DNA of 64,000 nt from the NCBI RefSeq assembly GCF_036507355.1, contig NZ_AP027877.1; one strand, given 5' to 3'. Under the pieces are notes generated by a model. The model had not been told where the DNA came from and made no database searches. It saw only the letters and a list, made by a program, of their open reading frames with translations. Both the position numbers and the translations under genes were made by a program. This document shows positions 26,105-57,093 of the stretch, one piece after another. The stretch's first letter is position 1. The number at the start of each line of letters is the position of its first letter. Origin of the DNA: Escherichia coli. GTDB taxonomy: Bacteria; Pseudomonadota; Gammaproteobacteria; Enterobacterales; Enterobacteriaceae.

Positions 26105-28666
26105 TTACACCAGACTCTTCAAGCGATAAATCCACTCCAGCGCCTGACGCGGGGTGAGTGAATCCGGATCGAGGTTTTCCAGTGCCTCGACCGCAGGCGA
26201 GGTTTCTTCTGGCACTGACAGCAAAGACATTTGCGTACCATCCACTTGCGTAGCGGCGGCGTTCGGCGAAATGCTTTCCAGCTCACGCAGTTTTTGCCGT
26301 GCGCGCTTAATAACCTCTTTTGGCACGCCGGCCAGAGCTGCAACCGCCAGGCCGTAGCTTTTGCTCGCCGCGCCATCCTGCACGCTATGCATAAAGGCAA
26401 TGGTGTCGCCGTGCTCCAGTGCATCGAGATGCACGTTGGCGACGCCTTCCATTTTCTCCGGTAACTGGGTCAGCTCGAAATAGTGGGTAGCAAACAGCGT
26501 CAATGCCTTAATCTTATTCGCCAGATTTTCCGCGCACGCCCATGCCAGTGACAGACCATCGTAAGTGGACGTTCCACGCCCGATCTCATCCATTAACACC
26601 AGACTGTATTCGGTGGCGTTATGTAAAATATTGGCGGTTTCAGTCATCTCCACCATAAAGGTTGAGCGCCCGGAAGCCAGGTCATCTGCCGCGCCTACGC
26701 GGGTAAAGATGCGATCGATAGGTCCAATCTCGACTTTTTGTGCCGGTACATAGCTGCCGATGTAGGCCATCAGCGCAATCAGTGCGGTCTGGCGCATATA
26801 GGTACTTTTACCGCCCATGTTCGGGCCGGTAATAATCAACATCCGGCGCTGCGGTGACAGATTCAGCGGGTTGGCGATAAATGGCTCGTTCAGCACCTGT
26901 TCAACCACCGGATGGCGGCCTTCGGTAATGCGAATGCCCGGTTTATCAATAAAGGTCGGGCAGGTGTAGTTCAGGGTATAGGCCCGTTCCGCCAGGTTCA
27001 CCAGCACGTCGAGTTCCGCCAGCGCGCTCGCGCTCTGTTGCAACGCTTCCAGATGCGGCAACAGCAGGTCGAACAGCTCTTCATAAAGCTGTTTTTCCAG
27101 AGCCAGTGCTTTGCCTTTTGAAGTGAGGACTTTATCTTCGTACTCTTTTAGCTCTGGAATGATGTAGCGCTCGGCGTTTTTCAGCGTCTGGCGACGCATA
27201 TAGTTGATAGGTGCCAGATGGCTTTGCCCACGGCTGATTTGAATGTAGTAGCCGTGCACCGCATTAAAGCCAACTTTTAGCGTGTCCAGGCCGGTACGTT
27301 CACGCTCGCGGACTTCCAGACGCTCCAGATAATCGGTCGCGCCGTCAGCCAGCGCGCGCCACTCATCCAGCTCTTCGTTATAGCCCGATGCGATAACACC
27401 ACCGTCGCGTACCAGCACCGGCGGTGTGTCGATGATTGCTCGCTCCAGCAGATCGCGCAGCTCGGCAAACTCGCCCATCTTCTCACGCAGCGCCTGTACC
27501 GGTGCACTATCGACAGTTTCTAACTGCGCACGCAGCTCCGGCAGTTGCTGGAAAGCGTGGCGCATACGGGCCAGATCGCGTGGGCGAGCGGTACGCAACG
27601 CCAGACGCGCCAGAATACGTTCCAGGTCGCCGACCTGACGCAGTACCGGCTGTAGCTCGGCGGTGAAATCCTGCAATGCGCCAATAGTTTGCTGGCGCTC
27701 AAGCAACACGCGGGTATCGCGCACTGGCATATGCAGCCAGCGTTTCAGCATACGGCTGCCCATCGGCGTGACGGTGCAGTCGAGCACAGAAGCCAGCGTA
27801 TTTTCCGCACCACCCGCCAGGTTCTGGGTGATTTCCAGATTACGACGCGTCGCGGCATCCATAATGATGCTGTCCTGCTCACGTTCCATGGTGATGGAAC
27901 GAATATGCGGCAGAGTCGTACGTTGGGTATCTTTCGCATACTGCAACAGACAACCGGCAGCACAAAGTCCGCGCGGCGCGTTCTCGACGCCAAAACCGAC
28001 CAGATCGCGAGTGCCAAATTGCAGATTCAACTGCTGGCGCGCGGTGTCGATTTCAAACTCCCACAGCGGGCGACGGCGCAGGCCGCGACGGCCTTCAATT
28101 AACGACATTTCAGCAAAATCTTCTGCATACAGCAATTCCGCAGGATTAGTGCGTTGCAGTTCTGCCGCCATCGTTTCCCGGTCAGCCGGTTCGCTCAGGC
28201 GAAAACGCCCGGAGCTGATATCCAGCGTCGCGTAGCCGAAACCTTTGCTGTCCTGCCAGATAGCCGCCAGCAGGTTGTCCTGACGCTCCTGCAACAGGGC
28301 TTCATCGCTGATGGTGCCTGGCGTAACGATACGCACAACTTTGCGCTCAACCGGACCTTTGCTGGTCGCCGGATCGCCAATTTGTTCGCAGATGGCAACG
28401 GACTCGCCCTGATTCACCAGTTTGGCGAGGTAGTTTTCCACCGCATGGTAGGGAATCCCCGCCATCGGGATCGGCTCTCCCGCCGAAGCACCGCGTTTGG
28501 TCAGTGAAATATCCAGCAGTTGCGACGCGCGTTTTGCGTCGTCATAAAACAGTTCATAAAAATCACCCATCCGGTAAAACAGCAGGATCTCGGGATGCTG
28601 GGCTTTCAGCTTGAGATACTGCTGCATCATGGGCGTATGGGCGTCGAAATTTTCTATTGCACTCAT
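26105..28666 (-). CDS. mutS: DNA mismatch repair protein MutS
   Basis: 853-aa [43 protein letters not shown] with Walker [10 protein letters not shown]. Confidence 0.97.
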
Positions 28667-28912
28667 GGGGTTATGTCCGGTTCCCTGATATTAAATGGGG
28701 TGTGATGGTTTTTATTTTCGTTGTAATCACATAAGGCGCACATGATACCGGAGTTAATCATTTCAGGGGAAGAAGCGAACGGCGAGTTCTTGATGCTGGT
28801 TCCGGGAAAGATGCTGTTTTGCAGCTTTTGCGTGATGCTTATGAAGCAAGTACGCAAAATTGCGTCGGTTGAATAAACCTCCTCCTTCAGAGCCATAGTC
28901 CCCTTTCAAATT

Positions 28913-28935
28913 AAGTTGTAGTATAAATACACCTT
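28913..28935 (+). promoter_or_regulatory. candidate NsrR operator in the ygbA promoter
   Basis: AAGTTGTAGTATAAATACACCTT resembles the NsrR inverted-repeat consensus; about 20 bp upstream of ygbA. Confidence 0.45.
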
Positions 28936-28952
28936 AAGAGTATGGAGGCAGC

Positions 28953-29297
28953 ATGTCCGGCAAGCGTATCTCTCGTGAAAAACTGACGATTAAAAAAATG
29001 ATCGATCTTTATCAAGCGAAATGCCCGCAGGCGTCAGCGGAGCCGGAGCATTACGAGGCGTTGTTTGTTTACGCGCAAAAGCGGCTGGATAAATGTGTGT
29101 TCGGCGAAGAGAAGCCAGCCTGTAAGCAGTGTCCGGTGCACTGTTACCAGCCTGCAAAGCGTGAGGAGATGAAACAGATTATGCGTTGGGCCGGGCCGAG
29201 AATGCTGTGGCGTCATCCGATCTTAACCGTGCGTCATCTCATCGATGACAAGCGTCCGGTGCCAGAGTTGCCAGAAAAATATCGTCCAAAGAAATAA
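28953..29297 (+). CDS. ygbA: cysteine-rich small protein YgbA
   Basis: 114-aa ORF with CxxC pairs; between mutS and fhlA. Confidence 0.8.
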   Translation: MSGKRISREKLTIKKMIDLYQAKCPQASAEPEHYEALFVYAQKRLDKCVFGEEKPACKQCPVHCYQPAKREEMKQIMRWAGPRMLWRHPILTVRHLIDDKRPVPELPEKYRPKK

Positions 29298-29335
29298 ATC
29301 TGCCGGAGAGCCATACTCTCCGGCAAATAAGGCGC

Positions 29336-29764
29336 TTACGTTTTGGTAGCAATCAGGATTGCTGATGCTTTGATCAACGCAATAACGCGTGAGCCAGTGG
29401 TAAGTTTCATTTCATCCTGACTTTCATTTGTTACCACTGCCACAATTTCAAAACCCGCATCCGTTTTGATATGGACAGTGGCGTTCACTGCGCCTTCGGT
29501 GATTGTCGACACGCTGCCAGCAAACTGGTTGCGAGCAGAGAATTTCAGTCCACAGTCTTCCGTGGCCAGCGTTACCCACGGGGCTTTAATCAGGGCAATC
29601 GCTTCTTTCCCTTTTGCCAGCCCCAGAGCCTGTTGGCTGCTGTGTGTAACAATCGCCACCAGTTTTGCACCACCTGCCAGCGTCAGTTCTACTTCGTCAT
29701 TCACCGCGCCCATTGCTACTGCGCTAACTGTTCCGGTTAATTGATTTCTTGCTGAAACTGCCAT
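29336..29764 (-). CDS. molybdate/tungstate-binding protein with tandem TOBE (Mop) domains
   Basis: ORF 29336..29803; start at internal MAVSARNQLTGTV preceded by an AGGAGG SD; two repeats of about 70 aa, each with SARNQ ... G-V ... V-hydrophobic-K pattern. Confidence 0.7.
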   Translation of the reverse strand: MAVSARNQLTGTVSAVAMGAVNDEVELTLAGGAKLVAIVTHSSQQALGLAKGKEAIALIKAPWVTLATEDCGLKFSARNQFAGSVSTITEGAVNATVHIKTDAGFEIVAVVTNESQDEMKLTTGSRVIALIKASAILIATKT

Positions 29765-29808
29765 ACTGCCTCCTTTCATTGAATGTTGATCGAGTATAAC
29801 CACATCTG

Positions 29809-31887
29809 TTAAATCAATGCCGATTTATCAATTCCCAGTCGCTTCATCCGTGACAGCAGGGTCGTGCGTTTCAGCCCCAGACGTTGCGCAGCGCCTTTAG
29901 GCCCGGCAACCACGCCGTTAGTTTCTTTCAGCACGCGAACAATCAACTGATATTCATCTTCGCCCTCCTGAGCGACAACCGTTGCGGCAGGCGGCGTTTC
30001 AGGCTCCGGTAAAGCAATATCTGGCAATGACAGCTGCAGCACGTTGCCGCGTGTTAGCAATACCGCGCGCTCAATGACGTTTTCCAGTTCGCGTACGTTA
30101 CCCGGCCACTCCATATTGCTCAAGGTGCGCAACGTCTCGGCAGGAATGCTGTCGATATTGCGCCCCAGACGACGGGCAATTTTGAAGGTAAAGGCTTTCG
30201 CCAGCAGCGGAATATCTTCCGGACGCTCGCGTAGTGGCGGAAGGTGAATCGGGAATACGTTCAGGCGGTAATAGAGATCGCTACGGAACTCACGGTCGGC
30301 GACCATTTTTTTCAGATCGCGGTTAGTCGCGGCGATTAGACGCACGTCCGTCTGAATGATTTTGTTGCTGCCGAGGCGTTCAAACTCCTGTTCCTGCAAT
30401 ACACGCAGCAACTTCGGCTGTAACTCCAGTGGCATATCGCCCACTTCGTCGAGGAACAGGGAGCTTTTATCCGCCAGTTCAAAACGACCGATACGCTGGG
30501 CGCTGGCACCGGTAAAAGCCCCACGCTCATGACCAAACAGATCGCTCTCCAGCAATCCGGCAGGCATCGCCGCGCAGTTCATTTTGACCATGCGGCGATT
30601 ATTACGCCCACTGAGATTATGGATAGCACGGGCAATCAGCTCTTTACCCGTGCCAGTTTCACCGAGGATCAGCACGGTACTGTCACTTTGCGCCACCATT
30701 TCAACTTGTTTAAGCACGCTGTACATGGCTTCGCTGCGGCCAATAATCTCGCCAAATTCACTATCAACATTGTTGAGCTGCTCGGTCAGGGCGAGGTTTT
30801 CATCAACCAGCCGTTCTTTCAGACGATGGATTTCCTGATAGGCGAGGGCGTTATCGACAGCGATTGCCACACGTTCGGCAATCTGGCGCAGTAAATTCAG
30901 ATTGGTAGTGGTAAACACTTTCTCTTCACATTGCGCCAGTTTCAGCACGCCCAGCATGGTGTCGCCAGACATCAGCGGTAACAGGCACAAGGTTTGAATC
31001 TGGTTGCCCCAGGTGTCGAACAACATGCGTTCATAGGGGGCTAAATCATCCCGCTCGTGGAGATTAATCAGCAGCATCTCTTTACTTTTGAACACGCGTT
31101 CGGTGAGGGTTCCGGCTTCATCGACTTCGCTCTGTTCGTGGGCGGGATGCTGTTTATCAAGATAGTGAGTGGAGTAGATGTTGAGTTTGTTTTTACGGTG
31201 GCTGCGTAAGACGATACTGATATCGTCAATATCGAAATAGTAATGGATTTCTTTGGCGACTTCGCTGACCAGTTCGTCCATATCCAGGCGGGAAAGCACC
31301 GCGTTGGTGATGGCGACCAGGATGCGGAAGTTATCGCGTTCCCGGCATAACAACTCATAGTCGACATTGTTAACGACGCGACTCTGGATTTGTTCGGTGA
31401 CGACAGAAACGATCTGCGTAAATGTTTGCAGACGATTGAACTCTTTTTCGCTCCAGGGGCGATCGTCATAACGAATAAATTCACAGCCACCAAAAATATG
31501 CCCTTCCGCCGCCAGTGGCATCAGGCAATAGTGAGCAAATTTTGGGTATAGCCCACCTGCGGCCAGCTGCGGCCAGGTTTCACAAAATTCTTCGTAACTG
31601 CAATGCAGCGTATCAGGGCGCGACAAAATGCTGCGTACCGGACCGTGTGCCAGAACAGTTTCGTCTTCATATTTAATGGGGGTGTCTTTTTCACGCGATG
31701 CGTAATAAGACGCACGTTGAGTCTGCGCTTGCCACAACACAATAGCCGCGTTGTCGGCGAGCGCAGAACGCTTTACCAGTTGCGAAAGAGCCTCACACAG
31801 CGAGGCCAGATCGGGCTGCTGCAATAGTGTCCGAGTGATGTCGAACAACCCTTGCTGTCCGAGATCACTCATCGGTGTATATGACAT
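29809..31887 (-). CDS. fhlA: formate hydrogenlyase transcriptional activator (sigma-54 dependent)
   Basis: ORF 29809..31923; start at internal MSYTPMSDLGQQGLFDITR (692 aa); AAA+ motifs GETGTGKE and GAFTGA; C-terminal HTH. Confidence 0.95.
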   Translation of the reverse strand: MSYTPMSDLGQQGLFDITRTLLQQPDLASLCEALSQLVKRSALADNAAIVLWQAQTQRASYYASREKDTPIKYEDETVLAHGPVRSILSRPDTLHCSYEEFCETWPQLAAGGLYPKFAHYCLMPLAAEGHIFGGCEFIRYDDRPWSEKEFNRLQTFTQIVSVVTEQIQSRVVNNVDYELLCRERDNFRILVAITNAVLSRLDMDELVSEVAKEIHYYFDIDDISIVLRSHRKNKLNIYSTHYLDKQHPAHEQSEVDEAGTLTERVFKSKEMLLINLHERDDLAPYERMLFDTWGNQIQTLCLLPLMSGDTMLGVLKLAQCEEKVFTTTNLNLLRQIAERVAIAVDNALAYQEIHRLKERLVDENLALTEQLNNVDSEFGEIIGRSEAMYSVLKQVEMVAQSDSTVLILGETGTGKELIARAIHNLSGRNNRRMVKMNCAAMPAGLLESDLFGHERGAFTGASAQRIGRFELADKSSLFLDEVGDMPLELQPKLLRVLQEQEFERLGSNKIIQTDVRLIAATNRDLKKMVADREFRSDLYYRLNVFPIHLPPLRERPEDIPLLAKAFTFKIARRLGRNIDSIPAETLRTLSNMEWPGNVRELENVIERAVLLTRGNVLQLSLPDIALPEPETPPAATVVAQEGEDEYQLIVRVLKETNGVVAGPKGAAQRLGLKRTTLLSRMKRLGIDKSALI

Positions 31888-31960
31888 TTTGTTCTTCCAG
31901 GAAAGCACCGCAAAGCGGTGCAAAAGGTCATTGACTAACTATAGGAGATTTAGAATTTTA

Positions 31961-35789: not shown

Positions 35790-36251
35790 ATGACTATTTG
35801 GGAAATAAGCGAGAAAGCCGATTACATCGCACAGCGGCATCGTCGCCTACAGGACCAGTGGCACATCTACTGCAATTCGCTGGTTCAGGGGATCACGTTA
35901 TCGAAAGCGCGCCTGCATCACGCCATGAGCTGCGCGCCGGACAAAGAACTCTGTTTCGTCCTTTTTGAACATTTTCGTATTTACGTCACCCTTGCGGATG
36001 GCTTTAACAGCCACACCATCGAGTATTACGTCGAAACAAAAGAGGGCGAAGACAAACAGCGGATTGCGCAGGCGCAACTGAGCATTGACGGCATGATTGA
36101 TGGCAAGGTCAACATCCGCGATCGCGAACAGGTTCTGGAACACTATCTCGAAAAAATCGCTGGTGTTTACGACAGCTTATACACCGCCATTGAAAACAAT
36201 GTGCCGGTGAATTTAAGCCAACTGGTAAAGGGACAAAGCCCGGCAGCATGA
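35790..36251 (+). CDS. hycA: formate hydrogenlyase regulatory protein HycA
   Basis: 153-aa ORF at the head of the hyc operon. Confidence 0.9.
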   Translation: MTIWEISEKADYIAQRHRRLQDQWHIYCNSLVQGITLSKARLHHAMSCAPDKELCFVLFEHFRIYVTLADGFNSHTIEYYVETKEGEDKQRIAQAQLSIDGMIDGKVNIRDREQVLEHYLEKIAGVYDSLYTAIENNVPVNLSQLVKGQSPAA

Positions 36252-36375
36252 GCTGAGGCTTTGCCCGTTTTGCAGGCGTTACGCCTGTTTGGGGATGGGC
36301 GTGTCGATGAGTGTCGAAAATGACATTTCATCTGCATGTTTTCGTCAAAAATGACAATCACCTGAGGAATGCCTG

Positions 36376-36987
36376 GTGAATCGTTTTGTAATTGCTGACT
36401 CCACGCTCTGTATCGGCTGCCACACTTGTGAGGCCGCCTGTTCAGAGACGCATCGCCAGCACGGCCTGCAATCAATGCCGCGCCTGAGAGTGATGCTAAA
36501 TGAAAAAGAATCTGCACCGCAGCTCTGTCACCACTGTGAAGATGCACCCTGCGCGGTGGTCTGCCCGGTTAACGCCATCACCCGCGTTGATGGGGCCGTG
36601 CAGTTGAATGAAAGCCTGTGCGTAAGCTGCAAGCTGTGCGGCATCGCCTGCCCGTTTGGCGCAATTGAATTTTCCGGCAGCCGTCCGCTGGATATTCCTG
36701 CAAATGCCAATACCCCGAAAGCGCCACCGGCACCGCCTGCTCCGGCGCGTATCAGTACGCTGCTTGACTGGGTGCCGGGTATTCGCGCGATCGCCGTCAA
36801 ATGTGACCTTTGCAGTTTTGATGAACAAGGTCCGGCCTGCGTGCGGATGTGCCCGACTAAAGCCCTGCATCTGGTGGATAACACCGATATCGCCCGCGTC
36901 AGCAAACGTAAGCGTGAGCTGACCTTTAACACGGACTTTGGCGATCTCACCTTGTTTCAGCAGGCTCAAAGTGGAGAGGCTAAATGA
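36376..36987 (+). CDS. hycB: formate hydrogenlyase subunit 2 (4Fe-4S ferredoxin-type)
   Basis: 203-aa ORF with multiple CxxCxxCxxxCP motifs. Confidence 0.93.
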   Translation: MNRFVIADSTLCIGCHTCEAACSETHRQHGLQSMPRLRVMLNEKESAPQLCHHCEDAPCAVVCPVNAITRVDGAVQLNESLCVSCKLCGIACPFGAIEFSGSRPLDIPANANTPKAPPAPPAPARISTLLDWVPGIRAIAVKCDLCSFDEQGPACVRMCPTKALHLVDNTDIARVSKRKRELTFNTDFGDLTLFQQAQSGEAK

Positions 36988-52822: not shown

Positions 52823-53956
52823 CTACATCGGCAATGTTTTCAACAATCCAAATGCCTCTTTCATCCGATCCTCACTGACCACAAAGGCGCGAAGCTGGTC
52901 AGCATCGTCAACGCCGCGCGCCACCATTCCCTGGCGTTCGGTATTAATTTGCCAGCGTAAATCCTGACGCTGGGTTTCGCCTGCCAGATGCAGCGGTAAT
53001 TCCGGCGTTTTGATTTTCACCAGCATCGCCGGTAGTTTCAGTGGCGTGTTATTGCCGAGAAGATTTTTTGCCAGCACCATCGCGCTAAGTTGAATCGGCT
53101 GCAGGAACGGCAGTACCTGACCGTTAATTTCCGCGCAATCGCCCAGCGCGTAAATATCGGCATTACTGGTTTGCAGATAACTATCGGCGCAAACGCCGCG
53201 ATTAATCGTCAGCCCGGCGCGTCGTGCCAGGGCGGTTTCCGGGCGCAGTCCGGTGGCGGCAATTACCGCATCCACTTCGATACTGCGCTGGCGGTCCAGC
53301 GTTGCCAGAATGCCAGAATCCGTTTTTTCTAGCCCCTGCAACTGAGATTTCAACAGCAGATGAACGCCCATCTCCGTCAACCGATGCTGCAAGCGGCTGC
53401 TTACTTCCGGTGGCATTAACGACGCCAGAATACTGGCAGCGTTGTCGATTAGCGTAACCATTTTGCCTGCACGACAAAAATCCATCGCCAGTTCGCTACC
53501 AATCAAACCACCGCCAACAATCAACACGCGTCGGGCATCCCGCAGTTGCGTTTCACAGGCGCGATACTCTTGCTGACTATTTAACGTCAGCATTAACTCA
53601 CGCCCAGGCACAGGCGGGACAAAGGCACTGGCACCGGTTGCCAGTACTAGCTTGTCGTATTGCCACTGATTATTCTGGCTTTTCACCACACGGGCTTCGG
53701 CATCGATATCCGTCACCCAGGTTTGTGGAAACAGGCGCAGATTAAACTGCTCGGCAAATTCACCCGCCGTCTGGCGGGTAAGGTCATCGGCACGTTGCCC
53801 CTGACTGATAACATGGCTGAGATCAGGTTTGTTGTACTCATCCATGCTGTCGGCGGCAATCAGGGTTAATGGAATAGTTGCGTCCTGTTTGCGAATATTT
53901 TTCACCAGTTGGCGGGCGGCGAAGCCCGAACCAATGATCACAATGCCGTTACTCAT
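52823..53956 (-). CDS. norW: NADH:flavorubredoxin reductase
   Basis: 377-aa [28 protein letters not shown], pyridine nucleotide-disulfide oxidoreductase fold. Confidence 0.95.
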
Positions 53957-55392
53957 TTTGCCTCCGATGCCAGTTCTTCAAAGACGTCTTTGCCGAGGGA
54001 GCATTCCGGGCAGAGGAAGTTATCCGGGACTTCACTCCACGGCGTTCTTGGCGCAACGTCCTGCATTGGCTCGCCTTTTGCCGGATCGTAAATCCACTGG
54101 CAGACGCTGCACTGCATCCGTGGGCCGAGGTCAGCCGTCGTGGTGGCAGAGGTTTCTTCTTTAACTACCGCATTCACCGTGCTCTGCGGCAGCGGCGCGA
54201 GCGCCCACTGACGGGCGATTTCGCGACCGTGTTCACGGCATAACTCCAGAGCGTCCTGGTCTGGTCGCCATTTCGCTTTCAGGCTAAGCGACATTTCGAA
54301 ACCCGCATCCTGCAGGCGCGTGGAAAGACGATCCACCGCACCGCCGCTCCAGCCGTGAGATCCGAAAGCACTGGCGCGTTTGTTACGGAAGCGTAATCCG
54401 GTCATCTCCTCCACCAGCCCGGCGATTTTCGGCATCATCACATTATTCATCGTAGAAGTGCCGACCAGCACGCCTTTTGAGCGGAAGACATTGGTCAGGA
54501 TTTCGTTTTTATCGCTTCGGGCGACGTTGAAAATTTTCACCGCCACGCGTGGGTCGGTTTCCGCAATCCCCTGGGCGATAGCGTCAGCCATCATGCGGGT
54601 GTTATTCGACATGGTGTCGTAGAAAATGGTGATTCTGTCTTCCTGATAATCAGCCGCCCATTTCAGGTACAGCTCGACGATTTGCGTCGGGTTATCGCGC
54701 CATACCACGCCGTGAGAGGTCGCTATCATATCGACTGGTAAGTTAAAGCCCAGGATCTCGGTAATTTTCGGCGTTACCAGGCGGCTGAACGGCGTAAGGA
54801 TATTGGCGTAGTAACGCTGGCACTGCTCAAAAAGCTCCGTCTGATCCACTTCATCGTTGAACAGATGCTCGTCGCAGTAGTGCTGACCGAAAGCATCGTT
54901 ACTGAACAGCACCGCGTCGCCTGTCAGGTAAGTCATCATGCTGTCCGGCCAGTGCAGCATTGGTGTTTCGACAAAAATGAGCTGTTTGCCGTTGCCGATA
55001 TCCAGCGTGTCGCCAGTTTTCACCACATTAAAATTCCACTCCGGATGATGGTGATGACCATTTATCGAGTCGATAGCGTTGGCTGTACAGTAGATCGGCG
55101 TATCGGGAATTTGCGCCATCAGTTCGGTCAGCGCCCCGGCGTGGTCCTCTTCAGCATGGTTAATCACGATGTAATCGATATCCGCCAGATCGATTTCATT
55201 ACGCAGGTTCTGCACAAATTCGCGGCTGAATTTATGGTCGACGGTGTCGATCAGCACGTTTTTTTCTTCGCGGATGAGGTAGCTGTTGTAGCTGCTGCCG
55301 CGCAGCGTTTTATATTCCGTGCCGTGAAAATCACGCACTTCCCAGTCACGTTGACCCACCCAATGAATGTTATTTTTCACCACAATAGACAT
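53953..55392 (-). CDS. norV: anaerobic nitric oxide reductase flavorubredoxin
   Basis: 479-aa ORF with metallo-beta-lactamase-like, flavodoxin and C-terminal rubredoxin (CSVCQWIYD ... CPECS) regions. Confidence 0.95.
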
Positions 55393-55440
55393 AGCAACCT
55401 CAATTTATTCAGCGTGTTCTAAAAAGATGTCTTGCTAATT

Positions 55441-55456
55441 GCAGATTGCGTGCCAG
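55441..55456 (-). promoter_or_regulatory. sigma-54 (-24/-12) promoter of norVW
   Basis: Minus strand reads CTGGCAC-GCAAT-CTGC, about 50 nt upstream of norV. Confidence 0.65.
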
Positions 55457-55510
55457 TTTTTTATCTGATTGTTTTTACTCTATAAATAAAATTATGCTCA
55501 TTAATGAGTA

Positions 55511-55566
55511 GTCAAAATGACTATCAATCAAATGGTCGATATGACAATATCTATAGTCAAATTGAC
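55511..55566. promoter_or_regulatory. three NorR enhancer boxes (GT-N7-AC)
   Basis: gtcaaaatgac (55511..55521), gtcgatatgac (55535..55545), gtcaaattgac (55556..55566) in the norR-norV spacer. Confidence 0.7.
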
Positions 55567-55578
55567 AGTGAGGCAAAG

Positions 55579-57093
55579 ATGAGTTTTTCCGTTGATGTGC
55601 TGGCGAATATCGCCATCGAATTGCAGCGTGGGATTGGTCATCAGGATCGTTTTCAGCGCCTGATCACCACGCTGCGTCAGGTGCTGGAGTGCGATGCGTC
55701 TGCGTTGCTACGTTACGACTCGCGGCAGTTTATTCCGCTTGCCATCGACGGGCTGGCGAAGGATGTACTCGGTAGACGCTTTGCGCTGGAAGGTCATCCA
55801 CGGCTGGAAGCGATTGCCCGCGCGGGTGATGTGGTGCGCTTTCCCGCAGACAGCGAATTGCCCGATCCCTATGACGGTTTGATTCCAGGGCAGGAGAGTC
55901 TGAAGGTTCACGCCTGCGTTGGTCTGCCGCTGTTTGCCGGGCAAAACCTGATCGGCGCATTGACGCTCGACGGAATGCAGCCCGATCAGTTCGATGTTTT
56001 CAGCGATGAAGAGTTACGCCTGATTGCCGCGCTGGCGGCGGGAGCGTTAAGCAATGCGTTGCTGATTGAGCAACTGGAAAGCCAGAATATTCTGCCGGGC
56101 GATGCCGCTCCATTTGAAGCGGTGAAACAGACGCAGATGATCGGTCTGTCGCCAGGCATGACGCAACTGAAAAAAGAGATTGAGATTGTGGCGGCGTCCG
56201 ATCTCAACGTCCTGATCAGCGGTGAGACGGGAACCGGTAAGGAGCTGGTGGCGAAAGCGATTCATGAGGCCTCGCCACGGGCGGTGAATCCGCTGGTCTA
56301 TCTCAACTGTGCCGCACTGCCGGAAAGTGTGGCGGAAAGTGAGTTGTTCGGGCATGTGAAAGGAGCGTTTACTGGCGCTATCAGTAACCGCAGTGGGAAG
56401 TTTGAAATGGCGGATAACGGCACGCTGTTTCTCGATGAGATCGGCGAGTTGTCGTTGGCATTGCAGGCCAAGCTGCTGCGGGTGTTGCAGTATGGCGATA
56501 TTCAGCGCGTTGGCGATGACCGCAGTTTGCGGGTCGATGTGCGCGTGCTGGCGGCGACTAACCGCGACTTACGCGAAGAGGTGCTGGCAGGGCGATTTCG
56601 CGCTGACTTGTTCCACCGCCTGAGCGTGTTTCCACTTTCGGTGCCGCCGCTGCGTGAGCGGGGCGATGATGTCATTCTGCTGGCGGGGTATTTCTGCGAG
56701 CAGTGTCGTTTGCGGCTGGGGCTCTCCCGCGTGGTATTAAGTGCCGGAGCGCGAAATTTACTGCAACACTATCGTTTTCCGGGGAACGTGCGCGAACTGG
56801 AACATGCTATTCATCGGGCGGTAGTGCTGGCGAGAGCCACCCGCAACGGCGATGAAGTGATTCTTGAGGCGCAACATTTTGCTTTTCCTGAGGTGACGTT
56901 ACCGCCGCCAGAAGCGGCGGCGGTGCCCGTTGTTAAGCAAAACCTGCGTGAAGCGACAGAAGCGTTCCAGCGTGAAACTATTCGTCAGGCACTGGCACAA
57001 AATCATCACAACTGGGCAGCCTGCGCGCGAATGCTGGAAACCGACGTCGCCAACCTGCATCGGCTGGCGAAACGTCTGGGATTGAAGGATTAA
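55579..57093 (+). CDS. norR: sigma-54-dependent nitric oxide-responsive activator NorR
   Basis: ORF 55504..57093; start at internal [18 protein letters not shown] (504 aa); GAF, AAA+ ([14 protein letters not shown]) and HTH regions. Confidence 0.95.

Follow-up and report, generated by a model that had tools for sequence, protein, structure and literature searches.

The 23-mer AAGTTGTAGTATAAATACACCTT, found on the plus strand at positions 28913-28935 of the window (the whole 64,000-nucleotide stretch of Escherichia coli DNA that was analysed), is very probably the operator by which the NO-sensing Rrf2-family repressor NsrR controls ygbA, presumably via promoter occlusion that is relieved by NO. 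NsrR is an Rrf2-family Fe-S protein that loses DNA binding when its cluster is nitrosylated. In the scenario that we favour, a dimer of cluster-containing NsrR would bind the 11-1-11 inverted repeat and keep RNA polymerase off the ygbA promoter, whose -10 element would lie in the left half-site and whose predicted start would lie in the right one. Nitrosylation of the NsrR cluster by NO would then abolish DNA binding and derepress ygbA. This assignment draws on the motif match, position and conservation of the site, together with published NsrR- and NO/nitrate-dependent expression of ygbA and published K-12 ChIP-chip, to which we add predicted -10 and -35 elements, a predicted transcription start and promoter occlusion as the likely mode of repression.

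The site is this strain's allele of the ygbA NsrR operator known from earlier work on E. coli K-12 and CFT073, and the membership of ygbA in the NsrR (nitrosative stress) regulon is long established. Beyond correct annotation, its significance is slight, and the function of YgbA, which the operator does not address, is the more interesting question. What is added here is that the operator is held at a fixed position in at least 80 enterobacterial species, that its left half-site would double as the -10 hexamer, which would explain the departure of that half from the NsrR consensus, and that the E. coli alleles are nearly equal in predicted affinity despite strong local polymorphism.

The site in its locus and in the literature

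The operator lies within the 286-bp mutS-ygbA intergenic region of E. coli, with its 3' edge 17 bp ahead of the ygbA ATG (28953). It was delimited, as an unstranded feature, by matrix score and orthologue conservation, and reads as an 11-1-11 imperfect inverted repeat, AAGTTGTAGTA-T-AAATACACCTT. The left, promoter-distal half-site AAGTTGTAGTA (28913-28923) is the weaker, scoring 9.0 bits of a maximum of 16.4 on the NsrR matrix described below, and the right half-site AAATACACCTT (28925-28935) is the stronger, with 14.3 bits of 16.4. The regulated gene, ygbA (28953-29297, plus strand), encodes a 114-aa protein of the YgbA_NO family, as attested by its open reading frame, by a Pfam match (PF11756, E=1.1e-40) and by the RefSeq annotation. 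Its Shine-Dalgarno sequence, GGAGG (28944-28948, plus strand), can be read directly, and a G-rich stretch before the ATG is kept in orthologues. The site is preceded by mutS (26105-28666, minus strand), while a TOBE-domain gene (29336-29803, minus strand) is found 3' of ygbA and fhlA (29809-31923, minus strand) beyond it. In K-12, the gene order around ygbA is the same, minus the TOBE gene. The 674 bases around the site match 5,419 of 5,426 complete E. coli genomes with 90-99% identity, and the nsrR gene lies outside the 64-kb window.

That ygbA is part of the nitrosative stress regulon, as an earlier note on this DNA had supposed, is published for K-12, CFT073 and Salmonella (PMC5320621, PMC2884951, PMC1274295). 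The NsrR motif was defined as gATGyAT-N5-ATrCATc in a study that already named ygbA as a target (PMC1274295). Regulation of K-12 ygbA by NsrR is attributed to Bodenmiller and Spiro (2006), as cited in PMC5320621 and PMC2884951, and NsrR was located at ygbA by ChIP-chip in the same strain (Partridge 2009, as cited in PMC5320621). In a Salmonella nsrR mutant, ygbA mRNA is up 31.8-fold (PMC2884951). In CFT073, the ygbA site is listed above the PatSer threshold (ln P = -16.65), and ygbA is among the genes that are induced by nitrate/NO in RNA-seq of nitrate respiration; NsrR ChIP-seq in this strain gave no peak at ygbA, which the authors deem a false negative (PMC5320621).

Motif score, symmetry and conservation

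The site was scored with a symmetrised position weight matrix built from 16 distinct ChIP-seq-positive NsrR 23-mers of CFT073 (Table 4 of Mehta et al., 2015; PMC5320621), a training set from which ygbA and one duplicated site were left out. It reaches 23.1 bits, ranks first among the 63,978 positions of the window and would place fourth among the training sites themselves, which range from 13.7 to 32.2 bits. None of 200 first-order-Markov random 64-kb sequences attains this score, their mean maximum being 13.2 bits, and an alternative matrix, made from all 25 published non-ygbA sites, gives 22.9 bits and again the first rank. The likeness to the NsrR consensus that the earlier note had pointed out, together with the matrix scan that it had called for, is therefore borne out far beyond chance. 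Among the features that mark an NsrR operator of the enterobacterial 11-1-11 type, motif match, location in the probable promoter region, inverted-repeat halves and conservation upstream of orthologous genes are seen here.

Symmetry is a different matter. The earlier note had described an imperfect inverted repeat at 28913-28935, directly upstream of ygbA, and both sequence and position are confirmed, with 8 of the 11 positions of AAGTTGTAGTA and AAATACACCTT complementary. Repeats of 11-1-11 architecture with at least 8/11 complementarity occur 91 times in the window, compared with 77.7 +/- 8.3 times in shuffled sequence, which means that this level of complementarity is expected by chance and that symmetry by itself is no evidence. 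The site is also absent from the output of a generic inverted-repeat search of the intergenic region.

Comparison with known NsrR operators places the site well within the family. Its K-12 equivalent, AAGATGTAATATAAATACATCTT, occupies the same locus and the same position relative to the ATG, has the same 11-1-11 architecture and is identical at 20 of 23 bases. The two scores are essentially equal (22.8 bits in K-12, 23.1 bits in the window), and each of the three substitutions that lead from K-12 to the window (A4T, A9G and T20C) affects a position that also varies between species. The CFT073 site, AAGTTGTAATATAAATGCACCTT (given on the ygbA strand; Table 4, PMC5320621), has T4 and C20 in common with the window and differs from it at position 9 (A rather than G) and at position 17 (G rather than A). 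The operators of ytfE, hmp and hcp, which belong to the core NsrR regulon, display the same 23-bp inverted-repeat motif and are bound by the same repressor. Among these, ygbA compares with hmp (22.5 bits) and falls somewhat below hcp (26.8 bits), whereas the ytfE site, at 32.2 bits, is almost perfectly symmetric, unlike ygbA with its degenerate left half of 9.0 bits.

Conservation was assessed by scanning one genome per species, which yielded 464 ygbA relatives, of which the best 80 loci were examined. These come from Escherichia, Citrobacter, Salmonella, Klebsiella, Raoultella, Enterobacter, Kluyvera, Lelliottia, Leclercia, Pluralibacter, Phytobacter, Rahnella and other genera. In each of these 80 loci (the best 80 of 464), the top matrix match within 250 bp upstream is found 12-25 bp (for the most part 15-20 bp) ahead of the start codon. 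The orthologue sites score a median of 20.3 bits, with 73 of 80 at or above the random ceiling of 13.2 bits, while the median for the runner-up matches of these 250-bp regions is 1.9 bits.

Ungapped sequences anchored on the site (n=81) provide a footprint at single-base resolution. A2, T7, A8, T12, C18, T22 and T23 are found in 81 of 81 sequences, A1, G6 and A11 in 80 of 81, and exceptions are few at A15, T16, G/A17, A19 (77 of 81) and C21; positions 9 and 10 vary. Outside the 23 bp, upstream DNA has approximately zero information content, except for a -35-like yTG. The conserved positions are mirror-symmetric (AA...GTA / T[G/A]CA...TT), and the pattern that they form, AA...GTA..AT..AT[G/A]CA.CTT, is that of the gATGyAT-N5-ATrCATc motif of Rodionov et al. 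(PMC1274295).

Other matrix matches in the window deserve brief mention. The second best (21.9 bits), AAATGACATTTCATCTGCATGTT at 36318-36340, is located in the hycA-hycB intergenic region (hycA, 35790-36251; hycB, 36376-36987) and is one base off the ChIP-seq-positive 'hycB' site of CFT073, although its score is partly circular since that CFT073 site is in the training set. All the remaining matches score at most 15.5 bits, near the random ceiling of 13.2 bits, and are not considered to be sites. This applies also to a match at 55436-55458 in the norV-norR intergenic region, which at 12.0 bits falls under the chance ceiling. The genes that flank it, norV (53953-55392, minus strand) and norR (about 55504-57093, plus strand), form with norW (52823-53956, minus strand) the NorR/sigma-54 NO-reductase system, a second NO-responsive circuit encoded in the same window ~24 kb from ygbA.

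Predicted promoter geometry and rival explanations

A sigma-70 consensus scan of 28600-29400 returned no promoter, which is consistent with a weak -35, and the promoter was deduced from conservation instead. The likely -10 hexamer is TAGTAT (28919-28924, plus strand), inside the left half-site, where orthologues display a TAnnAT pattern (T7, A8 and T12 in 81 of 81 sequences, A11 in 80 of 81). By lineage, this hexamer is TAGTAT here, TAATAT in K-12 and TATTAT in most genera. A putative weak -35 hexamer, TAGTCC (28896-28901, plus strand), is separated from it by a 17-bp spacer and coincides with the yTG at 28896-28898, the sole conserved element upstream of the operator (28896 is T/C in 79 of 81 sequences, 28897 is T in 46 and 28898 is G in 75). 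Against the sigma-70 consensus, the TAGTCC-17 bp-TAGTAT arrangement matches at 3/6 positions in the -35 (TTGACA) and at 4/6 in the -10. Transcription is predicted, from the position of the -10 only, to start at an A 7 nt past this hexamer (28931, plus strand), inside the right half-site, and the predicted leader would be 22 nt long and carry the GGAGG. No experimental ygbA transcription start emerged from the literature that we searched: in the supplementary data of Kim et al. (2012; PMC3415461), b2732 appears only as an entry of an orthologue table, and the K-12 site string had no full-text match. Together with the empty sigma-70 scan, this means that the promoter geometry proposed here is derived entirely from conservation.

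The overlap with the -10 region that the earlier note had suggested finds support in this phylogenetic footprinting, through the invariant TAnnAT and the yTG at a 17-bp spacer, and can be refined to the probable hexamer TAGTAT at 28919-28924. T7 and A11 are fixed at ygbA although the favoured bases of the NsrR consensus are C/T (position 7) and T (position 11), and the weakness of the left half-site (its 9.0 bits and its deviation from the NsrR consensus) could be explained by its doubling as the -10 hexamer. As judged from the sequence, the operator would reach from about -18 to about +5 relative to the predicted start, which suggests repression by promoter occlusion.

The same observations invite the question of whether the conserved block could merely be the ygbA core promoter (-10, discriminator and start site), its NsrR likeness being incidental. 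The promoter does contribute to the conservation, as T7, A8, A11 and T12 give the -10-like TAnnAT and the yTG is found 17 bp upstream. A -10 accounts for positions 7-12 only, however, whereas positions 1, 2, 6, 15-19 and 21-23 likewise have few or no exceptions and are mirror-symmetric. Moreover, the right half takes no part in the -10 element, and its 14.3 bits (maximum 16.4) come from an NsrR matrix whose training sites belong to other genes, and derepression of ygbA in nsrR mutants has been published (PMC2884951; Bodenmiller and Spiro 2006, as cited in PMC5320621). A promoter with an incidental NsrR likeness thus seems very unlikely. As for a functionless, chance AT-rich imperfect palindrome, it may invoke the chance-level frequency of 8/11 inverted repeats (91 observed for about 78 expected), and yet it would have to produce the top matrix score of the window, one that 0 of 200 random sequences reach. 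It is ruled out by the conservation of both position and sequence in 80 of 80 loci (the best 80 of 464) amid unconserved DNA, which leaves it with a negligible probability.

It could also be argued that the main binder is another regulator rather than NsrR, for example the Rrf2-family protein IscR, since Rrf2 proteins recognise AT-rich palindromes of like length. The type 1 and type 2 IscR motifs, which contain CC...GG, are not known to resemble AAGTTGTAGTATAAATACACCTT, and this counts against IscR. The lack of a ygbA peak in CFT073 NsrR ChIP-seq (PMC5320621) would be in accord with a different binder, whereas the fit of the site to a ChIP-seq-derived NsrR matrix, which is as good as that of genuine targets, and the K-12 ChIP-chip experiments that placed NsrR at ygbA (as cited in PMC5320621) are difficult to reconcile with it. 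We consider a main binder other than NsrR highly improbable, and no result of this analysis speaks for one. Finally, a permissive Rfam scan of 28600-29400 detected no RNA family, and therefore offers no riboswitch or sRNA alternative to control by NsrR.

Variation of the operator within E. coli

Across mutS, ygbA and fhlA, the window differs from K-12 at ~1 base per 100. In the ~80-bp patch that comprises the ygbA promoter (28863-28943), there are 21 differences, i.e. ~26% of positions. In a census of a 101-bp version of this patch in 5,413 E. coli genomes, identity classes proved to be multimodal, with 1,316 genomes at 99% or more, 655 at 95-99%, 594 at 90-95% and 2,849 at 80-90%, this last class including K-12 and O157 types. 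The window-type patch is thereby found in ~24% of complete E. coli genomes. Six operator alleles are seen among representatives, and these are mosaics at site positions 4 (T/A), 9 (G/A), 17 (A/G) and 20 (C/T), the allele of the window being T4, G9, A17 and C20. These four positions are degenerate across species.

All six alleles score between 22.6 and 23.8 bits. By comparison, variants of the K-12 site with three substitutions have a mean score of 14.5 bits, and only 2.2% of them score as high as the window allele. That the scores of the six alleles are held in such a rapidly varying patch argues that the predicted affinity of the operator has been preserved. The distribution of differences between the window and K-12 (3 of 23 positions in the operator, about 18 of 57 in the flanks) is suggestive, not significant alone, and the score that is kept across alleles is stronger evidence than these difference counts.

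The ygbA promoter-operator patch is a polymorphism hot-spot, and its alleles are mosaic and recombinant. A bolder proposal is that these alleles, of which at least six are at high frequency, might together with their differing flanks (-35 and 5'UTR) set lineage-specific basal expression or NO thresholds for ygbA. We regard this as improbable. If it were true, natural variation in NsrR repression would be kept by selection, rather than arising by neutral drift.

A few minor features lie in the vicinity of the operator. The TOBE-domain gene between ygbA and fhlA is a 155-aa ORF (29336-29803, minus strand) with two TOBE (molybdate-binding-type) domains, which is annotated in many other E. coli and absent from K-12; beside it, ygbA departs from its K-12 counterpart at the 3' end (114 aa in the window vs 117 aa). 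Between mutS and ygbA, RefSeq annotates a 44-aa 'hypothetical protein' (28742-28876, plus strand) that is without a Pfam match and whose annotated length becomes 59 aa in K-12-like alleles; it is unlikely to be a genuine gene. Upstream of the ygbA promoter, 28810-28866 contains two nested inverted repeats, TTTTGCGT / ACGCAAAA (8 nt, perfect) and GATGCTGTTTTGC / GCAAAATTGCGTC, as well as a terminator-like hairpin with a T-run at 28813-28825, and these structures, which have no Rfam match, are kept in most E. coli. Patch haplotypes similar to those of E. coli are found in E. albertii and other Escherichia lineages (loci L012-L016).
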